Below, piece after piece: positions 16,651 through 23,762 of a stretch of DNA of 64,000 bases (within the stretch, counting starts at the first letter, position 1; every line of letters starts with the position of its first letter). The translations under genes were made by a program, and so were the position numbers. Below the pieces are notes generated by a model. It had not been told where the DNA came from. It worked only from the letters and a program-made list of their open reading frames with translations, and made no database searches. Origin of the DNA: an uncultured bacterium (GTDB taxonomy: Bacteria; Krumholzibacteriota; Krumholzibacteriia; JACNKJ01); NCBI GenBank assembly GCA_963695095.1, contig CAVOFT010000001.1, positions 3,456,001 through 3,520,000 on the forward strand, written 5' to 3'.

Positions 16651-18387
16651 TCAGCCGCCCGAGCGCAGGCGGCGCTCCAGGCGCCAGTCGAGGCCGAGCT
16701 CGAGCTGCCAGCCGTCGCCGGGTACGCGGCCGTCCAGGCCGGCGGGCCAGAGCCCCGAGCGGTCCACGCGGGCCAGGCCGCAGCGCAGATCCAGGCGCCC
16801 GGCGCCGGGCGCTGGCCAGTCGCGGCGCTCCCAGATGAGGCGATAGAGGCGCTCGACGGAGCGCTCCCCCACCAGCCAGGCCTTGTCCTTCTTCGCCATC
16901 CGGATGAAGCCGAAGTCCTCGCCACGGCGGCCCTCGATGAGCCCCCAGCGGCATTGCTCGAACTCCAGGGTGAGACGCCCCCAGCGCGCCGCGGGCGGCA
17001 GGTGCAGGGCGGCGTAGAGGCCGTCGGCGTTGGGCCCCAGCCAGTGGCCGAGCAGGCGGCCCTCGCCGAGCCGATCGTCGCGGACGAAGGCGCGGCGGAT
17101 GTCGCGGTCGTGGTGAAAGTAGACCTGCGGATCCAGGTGCACGGCCTCGATCGCGAGGTCGGCCCCGGCCAGGCCGAGGGGATTGGCCCAGACGAGGCCC
17201 GCCAGCTCGGCGAAGCTCGAGATGCCCGCCTCCTCGCCGGCCGGTTCAGCGGACTCGAGAGTCACCAGGCGATCGAGGAGGAACTCGCCGTAGAAGGTGA
17301 GGGGCGCGAGATCGAGGCGGCAGTCGATGCCGAGCACCTTCTTGTCGTCGGTGCCGCTCTGATCGGCAATGTCCTGGGTGCCCGCCACGAGGAAGGTCAC
17401 CGGGTTCAGATAGGCGAGATCGATGCCCCGCCCGCCATAGGCCACCGCCTCGTAGAGCCCGAAGCTGAGCGGACCCGGCGGGTGGATCTCGAGGCGATGC
17501 AAGGCAACATAGGCCTCGCCCGGCACGGATTGCTCCGTGCTGTCGGGCGGGAAGGGCTCGCCCGGAATGTAGCTCGGCGGATTGGGGCCGCGCTGGGTCT
17601 GGGCGAAGAGGCTGGCGCCGGCGACGTAGCGCGTGCGGAAGTGGAAGCTGATCCCGTCCAGGGGAAAGGGGTTCTCCGAGAGGAAGAGGCTGCCGCGGCG
17701 GCCCACGCCCCAGCGGCGGTCCTCGCGGCCCAGGCGCAGTTCGGCCCAGTCGCCGCCCCAGGCGAGCACGGCGCGGTCGAGGCGAGCGCTGGGCTCCTGG
17801 GTGATGTCGCTCGCGGCAAACGGCAGGTTGTCCACCCAGCCGCCGTCGCCGGCCCCGCGGCTGAATCGGCTGTAGTCCTCGTAGAAGTGGAGCTGGGCCG
17901 TGAGGCGGCCATCGAGTTCGGCGTCGAGGCCGAGCTGGAGCAAGCCCTGGCGCCGCGGTCGCCGCTCGGCGAGGGCCAGCGAGTCCAGGTCCGTGGGCCC
18001 GCCGAAGTAGCGCAGGCCCGCGGACAGCTCCCAGAGCGCTGGCGGATCGGCGCCCGGCGCTCGCCGCGCCGGCGATCCGGAGATCTCGCCGGCCGGGGGC
18101 TCCCAGCCGGCGGTCAGCGCTTCCAGGCGCGCCAGGCGCCGCGCATCGGCCGGAGTCAGCTCCCCGCGCCGGCTCGCCACGCGGGCCACGGCCCGGGCCA
18201 GTTCGTCGCGGCGCAGCGGGCGCAGCTCGAGGCTGCCCTCCCAGAAGCCCAGGGTACGGAAGTGCTCGAGCTGCTCGTAGACTTCCGCAGCGGGCGGCAC
18301 GCGCAAGGCCCCTTGGGCCCGCGCCGTGACGCACTCTGCAACGGCGAGGAAGGCCAGGAGTGCATAACGAGCGATGGGATGATGCAA
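16651..18387 (-). CDS. outer-membrane beta-barrel protein, capsule assembly Wzi-like
   Basis: Signal-like N-terminus; ELRLGREDRRWG, LYEAVAYGGR, AYLNP and LGHWLGPNAD motifs. TTG start after GGAGGA. Confidence 0.65.
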   Translation of the reverse strand: MHHPIARYALLAFLAVAECVTARAQGALRVPPAAEVYEQLEHFRTLGFWEGSLELRPLRRDELARAVARVASRRGELTPADARRLARLEALTAGWEPPAGEISGSPARRAPGADPPALWELSAGLRYFGGPTDLDSLALAERRPRRQGLLQLGLDAELDGRLTAQLHFYEDYSRFSRGAGDGGWVDNLPFAASDITQEPSARLDRAVLAWGGDWAELRLGREDRRWGVGRRGSLFLSENPFPLDGISFHFRTRYVAGASLFAQTQRGPNPPSYIPGEPFPPDSTEQSVPGEAYVALHRLEIHPPGPLSFGLYEAVAYGGRGIDLAYLNPVTFLVAGTQDIADQSGTDDKKVLGIDCRLDLAPLTFYGEFLLDRLVTLESAEPAGEEAGISSFAELAGLVWANPLGLAGADLAIEAVHLDPQVYFHHDRDIRRAFVRDDRLGEGRLLGHWLGPNADGLYAALHLPPAARWGRLTLEFEQCRWGLIEGRRGEDFGFIRMAKKDKAWLVGERSVERLYRLIWERRDWPAPGAGRLDLRCGLARVDRSGLWPAGLDGRVPGDGWQLELGLDWRLERRLRSGG

Positions 18388-18443
18388 GGAATCCTCCGGC
18401 TGGGGCGGGGCGATTCTAGGCGCGCGCCCGAGCGCGGACAAAC

Positions 18444-18473
18444 AAAAAGGGCCGCCCCGCGCGCGGGGCGGCC
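18444..18473 (-). terminator. intrinsic terminator
   Basis: GGCCGCCCCGC/GCGGGGCGGCC stem plus A tract, downstream of the HTH gene. Confidence 0.75.
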
Positions 18474-18531
18474 ATGAATCCGCGAGGCAGCGGGGCGCAT
18501 CCATGCCCGCCCGCCGCCGGTCGCCGAGTTC

Positions 18532-19169: not shown

Positions 19170-19844
19170 ATGGACACCGTCTACCTGCAGATCGACGGCG
19201 GACAGGCCCAGCGGCGCAAGCGGCGCTTCGGATTCATGATCGAGGCGCTCCTGCGCAGCCGCCTGTCGGCCGGCCTCGAGACGGGCTGCCATCGTCCCGA
19301 CGAAGACGTGAACATGTACCTGGCCGATCTGCTCTGCCACTACGCGGAGGGCGGAGCCGAGCGCTGGCAGAGCGACTACATCATTCCCTATGCGGGCGAT
19401 CTGGCCGAGCGCGTGGCGAGCGCCGGCGAGTGCCGCACCAAGTACCTCATCTATCGGAAGAATGCCGACCATCTCCTCGTGAGCCTGGGCATCTTCGGCA
19501 ATCCCTGGCTGCGCGGCCCGGTGCAGGGCAGCTGTCCGTGGCGGGCCAATCGGGAGGAGAGCATCGGGCGGGGCAAGAGCTACTATGCGCGGGCGGCGAC
19601 CTACGCCTCGCGGCTCGGCGAAGGCCGGCGCGGTCTGGACGCCTTGCTGGCGAAGCTGGAGATCGGCTTCGAGGAGTACCTGCGCATCCTCGAGACCCTG
19701 CGCAGCGAGGCCTTCAATCTGCGGCAGATCTTCACCGTCGGCGAGTGGTACCACTTCTGCCGCGAGCTGGGGATCAGTCCTCGTACTCCGCCGGGGGGCC
19801 CGGCGCCGGGGGGGGAGCCGCCGCCTTCCGCTGTGCTTGGATGA
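19170..19844 (+). CDS. hypothetical all-helical protein
   Basis: ATG after GGAGG; native codon usage; DEDVNMYLADLL, YRKNADHLL and GKSYY segments. No function recognised. Confidence 0.75.
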   Translation: MDTVYLQIDGGQAQRRKRRFGFMIEALLRSRLSAGLETGCHRPDEDVNMYLADLLCHYAEGGAERWQSDYIIPYAGDLAERVASAGECRTKYLIYRKNADHLLVSLGIFGNPWLRGPVQGSCPWRANREESIGRGKSYYARAATYASRLGEGRRGLDALLAKLEIGFEEYLRILETLRSEAFNLRQIFTVGEWYHFCRELGISPRTPPGGPAPGGEPPPSAVLG

Positions 19845-20694
19845 ACTCCTGCACCTCGCGCGTGACCCGCGCGCTCTCGGCGCCCTCGAGCAGCAAGTGG
19901 CCGCCCTTGTCGAGCAGGAGCGTGCGCGCCCGCTTGCCCAGGGCGCGCTGGACGCGGCGCAAGCCGGCCGTGCCGAGCTCCGGGTTGTCCTTGGCGTGGA
20001 TGGCCAGGACCGGGGCGCTGAGTCCGGACAGCTGCGCCGACGCCTCGTGCACGGCGCCGTAGCGGTCGGCCATCCAGCGGTGGGGACTGCGGGCGATCAT
20101 CCGCTCGAAGAGGCGCGGGAAGAGCCGGCGCCAGCCCAGGGCCAGGCGCTCGCGCAGGCTCAGGTGCGGCTTGAGCGGCGGCGAGAGCAGGGTGAGGCTG
20201 GCCACCGGGTGCCGCGCCGCGATGAGAATGGCGAGGATGCCGCCGAAGCTCGACCCCACGAGGTGGATGGGCACGTCGAGCAGGGCCAGGTTGCTGTAGC
20301 GCATCTCGAGCTCGGCCAGGGGCAGCTGCCAGGGCACGCCGCCGCGCTGCTCGCCCACCGCTGCCTCGCTGGGCAGCAGCGAGCTGTAGACGGTCATCCC
20401 CGCGCGGTAGAGGTGGCGGCCGAGCTGGAAGTACTGGGCGGGCGTGCTGTGGCCCCCCGGGACGAGGAGCACCGCCGCCGTCGGCGTTTCCTGGATGTAG
20501 AGGAAGGAGCGATCCCGCTTGGGGATGTCCAGGTCCTCTTCGCGCAGGCGCTGCAGCTCGTAGTGGCTGCGCAGGATGTTGAGCCGCTCGGCCAAGGGCA
20601 GCCGCGAGCCCTGGTTCATCCGCTCCAGGGTCCAGACCGTGTCGGTGATGTTGCGGAGCTGCTCTTCGCGGCTGCTCGGAATGACGGAGCTCAT
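19774..20694 (-). CDS. alpha/beta hydrolase (carboxylesterase-like)
   Basis: GSSFG nucleophile elbow, IHAKDN, GGH. Start uncertain. Confidence 0.75.
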   Translation of the reverse strand: MSSVIPSSREEQLRNITDTVWTLERMNQGSRLPLAERLNILRSHYELQRLREEDLDIPKRDRSFLYIQETPTAAVLLVPGGHSTPAQYFQLGRHLYRAGMTVYSSLLPSEAAVGEQRGGVPWQLPLAELEMRYSNLALLDVPIHLVGSSFGGILAILIAARHPVASLTLLSPPLKPHLSLRERLALGWRRLFPRLFERMIARSPHRWMADRYGAVHEASAQLSGLSAPVLAIHAKDNPELGTAGLRRVQRALGKRARTLLLDKGGHLLLEGAESARVTREVQEFIQAQRKAAAPPPAPGPPAEYED

Positions 20695-20783
20695 GGCGTG
20701 GCTGCGGGCTCGATGGCGGAGGGAAGGGTCCGGAAATTCCTCGCAAATATACTCCATCTTCGGGTCGCCTGCCACAGCCGCAA

Positions 20784-20812
20784 TTGACACTCAAGCGGAA
20801 TTCCTCTAAGAT
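20784..20812 (+). promoter_or_regulatory. sigma70 promoter for the cys leader and cysE
   Basis: TTGACA-17 nt-TAAGAT. Confidence 0.8.
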
Positions 20813-20853
20813 AGCGGCTAGTTGTAACGAGCCTCCGCGACGAGGAAATTTCG

Positions 20854-20928
20854 ATGGACCGACTCCTGAGCAGTTCCTTCTGCTGTTGTCGCCCCCTTCA
20901 CAACAGGGATCGGCGGGAAGAACTGTAG
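20854..20928 (+). CDS. cysteine-rich leader peptide [24 protein letters not shown]
   Basis: GAGGA RBS at 20842-20846, ATG 20854, TGC TGT TGT at 20881-20889, TAG 20926-20928. Lies between the promoter and the terminator upstream of cysE. Confidence 0.75.
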
Positions 20929-20959
20929 TCCGGTAGCTCCTCAGCACAGCGAAAACAGG

Positions 20960-20988
20960 ACGCGGGCCTTCCGGCCCGCGTTTTTTTT
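20960..20988 (+). terminator. attenuator (intrinsic terminator) in the cysE leader
   Basis: ACGCGGGCC-TTCC-GGCCCGCGT followed by a T8 tract, ending 43 nt before cysE. Confidence 0.88.
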
Positions 20989-21031
20989 CAGCCGGCGCCG
21001 TCCCGAGCCCGGCGACGAAGCGAGGTGGACG

Positions 21032-21715
21032 ATGAAGCTCTGGCACAAGCTCCGCGAAGATCTGCGCTCGGCCCAGGAGCGCGACCCGGCCGCACAGGGC
21101 GCCCTGGAGCTGCTGTTGCTGTACCCCAGCCTCCACGCGGTCTGGGCCTACCGGCTGGCCCATGGGCTCTGGCGGCGGGGCCTGCGCTTCCCCGCCCGCT
21201 TCCTGATGAGCGGCGTCCGCGTCTTCACCGGCGTGGAGATCCACCCGGGCGCCGTCATCGGCCGGCGTTTCTTCATCGACCACGGCGTGGGGGTCGTGAT
21301 CGGCGAGACGACCGAGATCGGCGACGACGTCCTCCTCTATCAGGGCGTCACCCTCGGCGGCACCAGCCTGGCCAAGGGCAAGCGCCACCCCACGCTGGGT
21401 CACCACGTGGTAGTGGGCGCCGGGGCCAAGGTGCTCGGGCCCATCCGCATCGGCGACGGCGCTCGCGTCGGAGCAAGCAGCGTGGTGATCAAGGACGTGG
21501 CGCCCCAGCAAGTGGTGGTCGGCATCCCCGCGCGCGTCGTCGGGCACCGCGAGGACGCCGAAATCCGCCTCCGCCACCACCTGATCAATGATCCCGTGCA
21601 GGAGAGCCTGCGCGGCCTCGAGGAGCGCATCCGCTTCCTCGAGAGCCGTCTGCAGGAGCGCCGGGACCCGCCGGAGCCCGCCGGGAGCGATGTGGCGGCC
21701 GACGATCCGCGCTGA
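21032..21715 (+). CDS. cysE: serine O-acetyltransferase
   Basis: [32 protein letters not shown]; hexapeptide repeats. Confidence 0.96.
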
Positions 21716-21888
21716 GCCCCCATCGCCGCACGCGGCTGGGCCCGATTGCAGCTTCTCGCAAGCGCTTGGCGGGAAACGCGTTGATGACGCCGCCATCTTG
21801 AACCCGGCTGCCGGCTCTGGCATATTGAGGCCTCGTGCGCCGCCTCCGGGCGGTGCCTGGCCGCCACCTGTCATGAGGAGCCAAGACC

Positions 21889-22827
21889 ATGAAGAAGGTG
21901 AGCATCGTCGGCAGCGGAAACGTGGGCGTGAATACCGCCTTCTTCATCGCCGAAACCGCCGCCGCCAATGTCCTGCTCGTGGACATTCAGGAGGGCATAT
22001 CCACCGGCAAGGCCCTGGACCTCATGGAGGCCGCGCCGATTCGCCGCTATCGCACGAGCATCGAAGGCAGCGACGCGATTGCCGACATCGCTGACAGCGA
22101 AGTGGTGGTGCTCGCCGCCGGCCGCATCCGCACGCCGGGCAAGGAGCGCAGCGAGCACTTCCAGGAGAACGCCGCCACGGCGCGAGAGATCGCCGCGGCC
22201 ATCGTCAAGTACGCGCCGGAAGCCAAGGTGATCGTGGCCACCGAGCCCGTGGACGCCATCGTCAAGGTCGTGCTCGACGCCACGGGCTTCGACCGCCACC
22301 GCGTGATCGGCGTGGGCGGGATCCTGGACAGCATGCGCATGGCCTCCTTCATCGCCGACGCCCTCGGCGTGAGTCCCCGCGACATCCACGCGCTGGTCAT
22401 CGGCAGCCACACCAGCCGCATGGTGCCGCTGCCCTTCTACGCGCGCGTCAACGGCGTCGAGATCACGCAGCTCCTGGACGCGCAGACCGTGGGCCGCATC
22501 GTCGACGATACCCGCCGGGCGGGCGACATGATCGTCGACCTCGCCAAGCGCGCGAATGCCTTCTACGCGCCCAGCGCCGCCATCGCTACCCTCGTCGAGG
22601 CCATCTGCCTGGACCTCAAGCTGGTGCGCTCGGTGAGCGTGATGCTCGAGGGCGAGTACGGCCTCAGCGGCGTGGCCCTCAGCGTGCCCTGCAAGCTGGG
22701 CGCGGGCGGCGTGGAGCAGATCATCGAACTGGCCCTCAACGAGGAAGACCGCCAGGCGCTCGCCGCTTCGGCCGGTCCCGTGCGCGCGCTCGTCGCCGCC
22801 GGCGACGAAAGGAAGGGAACGCGATGA
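21889..22827 (+). CDS. malate dehydrogenase family protein, divergent paralogue
   Basis: GSGNVG, GKALDL, RTPGKER, LDSMR, GSH; canonical SNP reads TEP. Confidence 0.85.
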   Translation: MKKVSIVGSGNVGVNTAFFIAETAAANVLLVDIQEGISTGKALDLMEAAPIRRYRTSIEGSDAIADIADSEVVVLAAGRIRTPGKERSEHFQENAATAREIAAAIVKYAPEAKVIVATEPVDAIVKVVLDATGFDRHRVIGVGGILDSMRMASFIADALGVSPRDIHALVIGSHTSRMVPLPFYARVNGVEITQLLDAQTVGRIVDDTRRAGDMIVDLAKRANAFYAPSAAIATLVEAICLDLKLVRSVSVMLEGEYGLSGVALSVPCKLGAGGVEQIIELALNEEDRQALAASAGPVRALVAAGDERKGTR

Positions 22828-23762
22828 AGAAGGTCAGCATCATCGGCGCCGGGCATGTGGGCGCCACCTGTGCCTACTACGTGGCCGAGAAGAACATCGC
22901 CAACATCGTGCTCGTGGACGTGATCGAGGGCATGCCCCAGGCCAAGGGCCTGGACTTCTGCCAGGCAGCGCCTCTGCGCCAGTACGGCGTCAAGGTGACG
23001 GGCACCAACCGCTACGCCGAGATCGCGGACAGCGACGTGGTCGTCATCACGGCCGGCGTGCCGCGCAGGCCCGGCATGGACCGCATGGATCTGCTCAAGA
23101 TCAACACGGAGATCGTCAAGACCGCCGCCCGCGCGGTGGCCGAGTACGCGCCCAACAGCACGATCATCGTGGTGAGCAACCCGCTGGACATCATGTGCAT
23201 GGTGGCCCTGGATGCCAGCGGCTTCGCCCTCAGGCGGGTCTTCGGCATGGCGGGCATCCTCGACAGCACGCGCTTCCGCTGGTTCGTGGCCGAGAAGCTG
23301 GGCGTCTCCGTGCACAACGTGCAGGCGATGGTGCTCGGCGGCCACGGCGACACGATGGTGCCCCTGCCCCGCTTCACGACGGTCAACGGGATTCCGATCA
23401 CGGAGCTCCTGACCGCAGCGGACATCTTGGCCCTCTCGGACCGCACCCGCGAGGGTGGCGCCGAGATCGTCAAGTACCTCAAGACGGGCTCGGCCTTCTA
23501 TGCCCCGGCGGCGAGCGCCGCGGAAATGGTGGAGGCCGTGCTCACCGACGAGAAGCGCATCCAGCCCTGCGCCGCCTATCTGCGCGGGGAATACGGCTAC
23601 GAAGCCATCTTCCTCGGCGTGCCCGTGCTGATCGGCGCCAACGGGGCCGAGAAGATCATCGAGCTGGATCTGTCCCTCGAGGAGAAGGCAATGCTCGACA
23701 AGAGCGCCGAGGCGGTGCACGAGGGCCTCAAGGCCCTGCGCAGCTTCTACACGATGGCCTGA
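22824..23762 (+). CDS. mdh: malate dehydrogenase (LDH-like type)
   Basis: GAGHVG, AGVPRRPGMDR, VSNPLD, LDSTR, GGHGD, GSAFYAPA. Confidence 0.93.
   Translation: MKKVSIIGAGHVGATCAYYVAEKNIANIVLVDVIEGMPQAKGLDFCQAAPLRQYGVKVTGTNRYAEIADSDVVVITAGVPRRPGMDRMDLLKINTEIVKTAARAVAEYAPNSTIIVVSNPLDIMCMVALDASGFALRRVFGMAGILDSTRFRWFVAEKLGVSVHNVQAMVLGGHGDTMVPLPRFTTVNGIPITELLTAADILALSDRTREGGAEIVKYLKTGSAFYAPAASAAEMVEAVLTDEKRIQPCAAYLRGEYGYEAIFLGVPVLIGANGAEKIIELDLSLEEKAMLDKSAEAVHEGLKALRSFYTMA

Follow-up and report, generated by a model that had tools for sequence, protein, structure and literature searches.

A putative cysteine-sensing leader-peptide attenuator upstream of cysE in the Krumholzibacteriota

We analysed a 64,000-nucleotide stretch of DNA from an uncultured member of the Krumholzibacteriota (assembly GCA_963695095.1, contig CAVOFT010000001.1, positions 3,456,001 to 3,520,000), hereafter the window, in which cysE, the gene for the committed step of cysteine synthesis, is preceded by a short leader region. 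Sequence comparison and folding models make it very likely that this leader regulates cysE by ribosome-mediated (leader-peptide) transcription attenuation in response to the level of charged tRNA-Cys. The locus combines the features expected of such a device: a promoter-proximal open reading frame (ORF) with a ribosome-binding site, a run of codons for the amino acid of the pathway, an intrinsic terminator before the gene, and a helix, here called 1:2, at the regulatory codons. A previous sequence-only reading had described the promoter, the ribosome-binding site, the 24-aa ORF with its Cys run, the terminator and cysE, and all are present (by sequence reading, ORF listing, ViennaRNA and TIGR01172). 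Its central proposal, control of cysE by stalling at the Cys codons, was exposed to refutation by comparison with relatives and emerged strengthened, with conservation in 20 of 20 loci and a covarying 1:2 stem.

According to the proposed mechanism (coordinates in Table 1), transcription would start near 20819, and a ribosome loading at the Shine-Dalgarno site would translate the 24-codon leader behind the advancing RNA polymerase. With Cys-tRNA plentiful, the ribosome would reach the TAG at 20926 and cover region 2 together with the sequence just beyond it, so that the terminator folds and transcription ends 43 nt before cysE; in the absence of translation, region 1 would pair with region 2 and termination would likewise follow. 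With Cys-tRNA scarce, the ribosome would stall at TGC-TGT-TGT, occupying region 1 and leaving region 2 and the adjoining GUCC (together 20916-20931) free to pair with the emerging 5' arm and loop of the terminator (20958-20972); the terminator would then not form, and polymerase would read into cysE. The transcription start, translation of the ORF, the antiterminator pairing and the response to cysteine are what we infer here.

Conservation of the leader and of its Cys codons

The comparison covered 208 species genomes of the window's phylum, distributed in a single class and nine families; the genome from which the window comes (G000) has 3.64 Mb and 70.5% G+C. Orthologues of the short cysE (E at most 1e-45) are present in 9 of the 12 genomes of family f1 (G000 included), in 11 of 43 in f4 and in 4 of 13 in f8. 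The search of relatives' cysE upstream regions recommended by the sequence-only reading gave a uniform answer in f1 and f4: each of the 20 loci has a TTGAC[AGC]-17-TAnnnT promoter upstream of cysE, an ORF of 15-24 codons with two to four consecutive Cys codons in the same place as that of the window, and, 19-108 nt 5' of cysE, a hairpin rich in G+C that leads into a U run. The U run has at least four U in every leader and at least five in all except L112. In f8, cysE lies directly after cysK, and one of the four loci (L120) has a Cys ORF and a terminator before cysK; no leader elements were seen at the remaining three f8 loci. The L120 leader (genome G198) has a build of its own, the fifth: its ORF, whose start codon is uncertain, contains a run of five Cys codons (…EFCCCCCAC…), and its terminator lies about 60 nt upstream of cysK-cysE.

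As a control, we used 79 cysE loci from other phyla, out of a set of 80 in which L031 is identical in sequence to L004. Some ORF of at most 45 codons containing two adjacent Cys codons is present upstream in 10 of them, and promoter, ORF and terminator occur together in none of the 79. A scan of the whole of G000 found six places where a small ORF with two or more Cys codons side by side lies close to a terminator; the window locus alone among them has ATG, Shine-Dalgarno site, three Cys codons and terminator within about 50 nt. The leader is single-copy in this genome. A wider Cys-leader regulon was not found in G000, whose three cysK-like genes elsewhere are without a leader. Metagenomes were scanned with a 17-nt word from the terminator arm as sole anchor, and 3 of the 71 matches are real leaders of the window's type, the other 68 being chance 17-mers. 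Among sequencing runs, the best one for the stretch is a DNA run with 24% of the stretch's words, against at most 8% for RNA runs, and one DNA contig from a close relative spans the leader with 17 differences in 520 nt.

By sequence, the leaders can be sorted into four mutually unrelated types. Type A (the window, L002-L004 and the metagenomic L159, L166 and L167, of which L159 has the same peptide as L002) and type B (L005-L008) have a 5' untranslated region (UTR) of about 35 nt with a Shine-Dalgarno site. In the window, the distance from the -10 box to the start codon is 41 nt and the 5' UTR, with its Shine-Dalgarno site, is 35 nt; the AGG core of this site is retained in all six A-type leaders of alignment A3. 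In type C (L009) and type D (the eleven f4 loci, where the leader precedes cysE and a cysK of the PALP family), the ORF starts only 7-10 nt past the -10 box, and these leaders are therefore probably leaderless.

The peptides have in common the Cys run, frequent Pro and a His, and little else. At the nucleotide level, TGTTGT is invariant in all 20 leaders (alignments A1 and A2), in a setting where, in G000, TGT accounts for only 9.2% of Cys codons and a single tRNA-Cys(GCA) is encoded; to judge from these sequences, its retention may reflect either wobble decoding that sharpens the sensor or a pairing constraint. Pro is found repeatedly 1-3 codons downstream of the Cys run; types A-C have a recurrent His 3-5 codons downstream of the run, and type D has Gly-His ahead of it (leaders L001-L011 and L111-L119). 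From this pattern, a contribution of the nascent peptide to pausing is possible.

The sequence-only reading had also suggested that three Ser codons preceding the Cys run might sense serine, the substrate. We rejected this idea. The residues at the position of the window's SSSF are SNPT, NTPL, HNLL and KSAR in the closest relatives, so that the Ser codons are not conserved, and the codons of region 1 (SSSF, SNPT, NTPL, HNLL) vary in ways that preserve its pairing.

A clean natural control is provided by places where cysE is absent. We built a pattern from the type-D terminator alone and ran it on the 208 genomes, with the reversed pattern as control: it matched 32 places in 31 genomes (reversed, none), two of which (in f6 and f2) look like chance. 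All 10 of the 30 real elements that precede cysE keep the Cys-run ORF, versus only 2 of the 20 orphans (f4 and f7) that have no cysE-cysK downstream. The 20 orphans (L200, L207, L209-L213, L215-L219, L222-L229; none with an Rfam match) all have a consensus promoter, a hairpin body of about 140 nt and a near-invariant terminator, and those of f4 align with the cysE leaders along their whole length (alignment A4, which contains the f4 orphans without the f7 ones). In L229, a frame change makes the same GTTGTTGTT read as Val codons, and in L216 other codons have replaced those for Cys and a stop has been gained. All nine orphans tested face a convergent GT4 glycosyltransferase gene, and two of three type-D cysE-cysK loci tested end at such a gene; because both kinds of locus adjoin it, the orphans look like remnants left after deletion of cysE-cysK. 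We considered whether this glycosyltransferase is BshA or MshA, of bacillithiol and mycothiol synthesis, and rejected both assignments (83-93 bits versus a cut-off of 273.7, and 75-98 versus 462.5). In the sequences compared, Cys codons are retained where the cysteine gene is present and decay where it is absent; kinship inflates the counts, and the direction is clear.

Structure of the leader RNA and the candidate antiterminator

The minimum-energy fold of the leader (20815-20995) has -75.4 kcal/mol, with z = -3.6 versus shuffles, and comprises an outer helix (P0) that joins the 5' UTR to the region past the stop codon, the 1:2 helix, a small apical hairpin and the terminator (Table 1). The terminator, ACGCGGGCC-TTCC-GGCCCGCGT followed by eight T (20960-20988), has a stem of 9 bp, of which 8 are G-C (20960-20968/20973-20981), and alone reaches -21.5 kcal/mol with ViennaRNA. 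A consensus terminator scanner reported only the minus-strand reading of this hairpin, apparently because a G-T extension of the stem consumes the T run on the plus strand. The pairing of CAGTTC/CTTC with GAAGAACTG proposed in the sequence-only reading is part of the predicted 1:2 helix and holds up. A second one, CTGTTGT over the Cys codons with ACAACAG, does exist in the window; it lies outside the minimum-energy fold, is perfect in none of the five other A-type leaders of A3, and is specific to the window.

In A3, which aligns the six A-type leaders, the terminated-state structure is 95% paired and seven pairs are changed on both sides, a number reached by at most 1 of 500 column shuffles; with slid partners, at most 51% is paired. 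The 1:2 helix contributes 15 pairs, five of them with compensatory changes (87.8% of cells paired), and P0 has 98.3% of cells paired and one pair with a compensatory change. All 11 terminator pairs are invariant, so that in type A this hairpin is uninformative for covariation. Type D likewise has compensatory changes, at 10 of its 37 predicted pairs. As far as these alignments tell, it is the RNA and the Cys codons that are under selection, rather than the peptide.

The 45 nt following the leader stop (20926-20968) are nearly invariant in A3, despite a diverging ORF and cysE. P0 and the antiterminator account for the ends of this stretch, and the linker 20940-20957 (CTCAGCACAGCGAAAACA) belongs to no helix.

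Table 1. Elements of the cysE leader in the window
Element	Positions	Strand	Basis and remarks
Promoter	20784-20812	+	-35 TTGACA 20784-20789, 17-nt spacer, -10 TAAGAT 20807-20812; consensus scan, 10/12 matches
Outer helix P0, 5' strand (GAGC, CCG, GAC)	20829-20841	+	Pairs with 20928-20939; minimum-energy fold
Shine-Dalgarno-like GAGGA	20842-20846	+	7 nt 5' of leader ATG; sequence reading
Leader ORF, 24 codons and TAG	20854-20928	+	Sequence reading and ORF listing
Region 1, 5' strand of the 1:2 anti-antiterminator helix	20870-20885	+	Overlaps the first Cys codons; minimum-energy fold
Regulatory codons TGC TGT TGT (Cys10-12)	20881-20889	+	Sequence reading
Region 2, 3' strand of the 1:2 helix	20911-20926	+	Ends at the stop codon; minimum-energy fold
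Candidate antiterminator, 5' strand (GGAAG, CUGU, GUCC)	20916-20931	+	Overlaps region 2 and P0; fold of truncated transcript
Outer helix P0, 3' strand (GUC, CGG, GCUC)	20928-20939	+	Minimum-energy fold, covariation test
Candidate antiterminator, 3' strand (GGACGCGG, CUUCC)	20958-20972	+	Equals terminator 5' arm and loop
Intrinsic terminator GGACGCGGGCC / UUCC / GGCCCGCGUUU	20958-20988	+	U run 20981-20988; sequence and ViennaRNA
cysE, serine O-acetyltransferase, 227 aa	21032-21715	+	TIGR01172, 241 bits (cut-off 210.65)

Concerning the antiterminator, we folded the transcript cut before the 3' arm of the terminator, with a ribosome footprint masked on the Cys codons. In the window, the predicted pairs are GGAAG (20916-20920) with CUUCC (20968-20972), CUGU (20923-20926) with GCGG (20962-20965), and GUCC (20928-20931) with GGAC (20958-20961). 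The alternative pairing GGCGGGAAG/CTTCCGGCC spotted by eye in the sequence-only reading shares with it the five core pairs of GGAAG with CTTCC. A duplex of region 2 with the terminator 5' arm and loop is possible in all 20 leaders (-15.7 to -24.7 kcal/mol), despite terminators that are unrelated from one of the four types to the next, and cognate pairs average -20.1 versus -14.9 kcal/mol for cross-type ones. Within type D, random re-pairing attains the cognate mean in 0.6% of trials (a fraction of 0.006, with L113 dropped as a near-duplicate of L111). In A3, 93.6% of antiterminator cells are paired, versus at most 49% when slid. When the terminator 5' arm is allowed to pair upstream, the modelled mean gain is -6.6 kcal/mol for a ribosome at the first Cys codon, compared with -3.9 for the free state and -4.4 for a ribosome at the stop. 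Of the 20 leaders, 17 gain more when stalled than when free, and 14 gain more when stalled than at the stop.

A number of observations weigh against the attenuation model, most of them at the antiterminator. The comparison of masked and unmasked folds, recommended in the sequence-only reading, bore out a competing fold in every leader, one that is weaker than the terminator: in the window the duplex has -18.3 kcal/mol versus -21.5, and the minimum-energy structure of the full-length transcript retains the terminator whichever ribosome mask is applied, so that antitermination would have to be kinetic, as in trp. The covariation of the antiterminator in A3 is not significant (two double-changed pairs, matched by 152 of 500 shuffles, the pairs being mostly invariant), and in type D the signal between the terminator loop and the 3' arm of the stop-codon hairpin is modest (0.013). 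Terminator-loop variants in L166 and L167 break one antiterminator pair on one side, without compensation. In our crude model, the window's own gain is -2.8 at the Cys codons, -1.9 free and -5.4 at the stop, so that its stalled state is not favoured, and moving the mask to the last Cys codon leaves only 10 of the 20 leaders with a larger gain than in the free state. Beyond the antiterminator, the relatives share descent and are not independent, and counts such as 20 of 20 are therefore overstated; the contigs of three RNA sequencing runs reach only 21204-21400, a conserved part of cysE, come from other organisms and contain none of the leader; and in the orphans the module of promoter, hairpin and terminator persists without the Cys ORF.

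RNAalifold recovered no consensus antiterminator from alignment A2. We also dropped a candidate compensatory loop change, GGUAGG with CAUCC in L003, because L167 and L166 are changed on one side only. Given the non-significant covariation, the uncompensated loop variants and the weak modelled gain, the modelled 2:3 antiterminator element is no more than plausible.

Alternative explanations and genomic surroundings

The persistence of the orphan module without its Cys ORF suggests that the RNA may have a second role. From their sequences, the orphans could be either relics of a deleted operon or an attenuator-derived family of small RNAs. A cysteine attenuator with a second life as an RNA gene, the orphans acting as trans-acting small RNAs or as readthrough antisense regulators of the gene they face, is a rather unlikely possibility in our estimation. 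Were it true, with the orphans under selection, terminated leader RNAs, including the 170-nt one of the window, could also act in trans and link cysteine status to other targets.

An improbable explanation of the leader itself is translational attenuation of the mycobacterial kind, in which a stalled ribosome would expose the ribosome-binding site of cysE and the hairpin would be no regulated terminator. The leaders of types C and D, probably leaderless, resemble the mycobacterial ones in this respect, and, in the portion of the report available, the only Cys-codon leaders dissected by experiment do act on translation (bioRxiv 10.1101/834739). Against it stand the G+C-rich hairpin and U run, the signature of intrinsic termination, in all 20 leaders, the Shine-Dalgarno site of cysE (about 21021-21027), which lies 33 nt past the U run and outside all modelled helices, and the accessible account of mycobacterial leaders as being without terminators (PMC1262725).

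We regard it as similarly improbable that the mini-ORF is a small gene in its own right, encoding a Cys-rich peptide and ending in its own terminator, or that the terminated RNA of about 170 nt is a small RNA, with cysE expressed separately. Promoter, ORF and terminator would indeed make a complete unit, homologous type-D units lie at 20 places without cysE, and Pro and His recur just past the Cys run. However, promoter-like sites in the 1-kb region 20400-21400 number two (0.1 expected from shuffles), that of the leader and one on the minus strand, and no second one lies between terminator and cysE; the U run is only 43 nt from the cysE ATG; RNA pairs are conserved where the peptide, outside the Cys run, is not; and the run is kept in all type-D units before cysE versus 2 of 20 elsewhere.

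Improbable to much the same degree is a terminator controlled by a metabolite or a protein, riboswitch-like or through an RNA-binding protein, with the ORF incidental. The almost invariant stretch past the stop in the six A-type leaders, with a linker accounted for by no helix, and the orphans that retain structure without the ORF would be in keeping with it. Nevertheless, the four unrelated types share only the Cys run and the architecture, which is unexpected for a binding pocket or protein site, and there is no Rfam match: with Rfam 15, region 19500-22500 gave no relevant family at E up to 10, neither a T-box nor a leader family, and the locus is therefore neither a T-box nor a known leader; 15 related loci gave nothing relevant at gathering thresholds. 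Finally, a short ORF and a terminator might lie together in this divergent intergenic region by chance, an idea suggested by the wealth of spurious ORFs in high-G+C genomes (9 kb contain 84 ORFs of 20 aa or more) and by the Cys-pair ORFs in 10 of the 79 unrelated upstream regions; it is effectively refuted by conservation in 20 of 20 loci with covariation and by the presence of only one such unit in the 3.64-Mb genome.

Regarding the surroundings of the leader, the upstream neighbour is a divergent alpha/beta hydrolase gene on the minus strand (5' end about 20694), so that the leader unit occupies a divergent intergenic region of 337 nt. In the window, cysE has no adjoining cysK, and its product also matches NF041874 (EpsC, 235.9 bits). 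The leader would mark this short-form enzyme as a true acetyltransferase of the cysteine pathway, where homology alone leaves an EpsC-type polysaccharide acetyltransferase as the alternative. Lying 174 nt 3' of cysE are two tandem genes of the malate/lactate dehydrogenase family (21889-22827 and 22824-23762, plus strand) that overlap by 4 nt; the second is a bona fide malate dehydrogenase (TIGR01763, 434 bits), and the first reaches the subfamily model only. No promoter or terminator consensus was found in the gap, and by its arrangement the pair may share the attenuated cysE transcript. Farther upstream, a 617-aa minus-strand ORF (16651-18504) carries a capsule-assembly Wzi domain (PF14052, 51 bits); the opposite strand has a 616-aa ORF of nearly equal span, a pattern typical of the shadow ORFs of high-G+C genomes.

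Comparison with known leaders and cysteine control

The control of cysteine synthesis is usually ascribed to the protein regulators CysB and CymR, T-boxes, or feedback inhibition of serine acetyltransferase. Leader-peptide control by Cys codons is known from experiment only in mycobacteria, and there it concerns translation. The classical attenuators are trpL, hisL, pheL, thrL, leuL and ilvL of the enterobacterial amino-acid operons. With these, the window's leader would share the promoter-proximal ORF, the run of codons for the operon's own amino acid, the alternative 1:2, 2:3 and 3:4 hairpins (2:3 as a candidate), the terminator before the first gene and the decisive position of the ribosome. 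It differs from them in its amino acid, cysteine, and gene, cysE, in the lack of any sequence or Rfam-model similarity, in the extra outer helix P0 between the 5' UTR and the post-stop region, and in a candidate antiterminator that draws on both the loop and the 5' arm of the terminator; the relatives' leaders of types C and D are a further departure, being probably leaderless. The Bacillus cysE-cysS T-box leader reads uncharged tRNA directly and contains no ORF. It has in common with the leader described here a terminator-based attenuator before cysE that would report the charging of tRNA-Cys, whereas here there is a leader ORF, and no T-box match at E up to 10.

Among predicted Cys leaders, the nearest is the uORFC-8-2 motif, for which the available part of Brewer et al. 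(2021; PMC8632094) gives 145 examples preceding cysS in Rhodobacterales. The motif combines tandem Cys codons with an intrinsic terminator and is interpreted there as ribosome-mediated attenuation. With a Cys-codon upstream ORF and an intrinsic terminator thus in print, the novelty claimed in the sequence-only reading was too strong. Going by that part of the paper, the two have in common tandem Cys codons within the first stem, a terminator with a U run, and stalling that would sense aminoacylated tRNA-Cys, all of it prediction only. They differ in that the motif precedes cysS, for cysteinyl-tRNA synthetase, in alpha-proteobacteria, whereas the gene here is cysE, of cysteine synthesis; moreover, by its description, on which this comparison solely draws, the Cys codons of the motif are codons 14-15 and mostly UGC, whereas here they are codons 10-12 and UGU is kept.

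Leader peptides with Cys runs were also predicted for cys operons in Mycobacterium, P. acnes and B. longum; the accessible text calls them "without obvious terminators" (Seliverstov et al., 2005; PMC1262725). In M. smegmatis, leaderless polycysteine ORFs (the "Cys ribulon") act by unmasking a Shine-Dalgarno site, according to the available sections of Canestrari et al. (bioRxiv 10.1101/834739). As these sources present them, the mycobacterial small ORFs resemble the leaders described here in having at least two consecutive Cys codons before genes of cysteine metabolism and, as is proposed here too, a pause at low Cys-tRNA that relieves repression, and they have the leaderless start that is probable for types C and D. 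They differ in that they sequester the Shine-Dalgarno site and are, as described there, without obvious terminators, whereas every leader here ends in a terminator; that of the window, in another phylum, is not leaderless (35-nt 5' UTR and Shine-Dalgarno site). In the searchable text of Naville and Gautheret (2010; PMC2965389), a term search finds cysteine only in a reference. Our literature search, which had most subscription journals and supplements outside its reach, turned up no publication describing a Cys leader in front of cysE.

The classical, terminator-based form of attenuation would thus guard cysE in two families of this uncultured phylum, and one locus of a third family adds an example before cysK-cysE. 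It comes in four builds unrelated in sequence, of which two have a Shine-Dalgarno site and two are probably leaderless. Such leaders represent small, portable candidates for cysteine-responsive switches. Their proposed mechanism is a textbook one and no new kind; it is for this amino acid, this gene and this phylum that little has been described.

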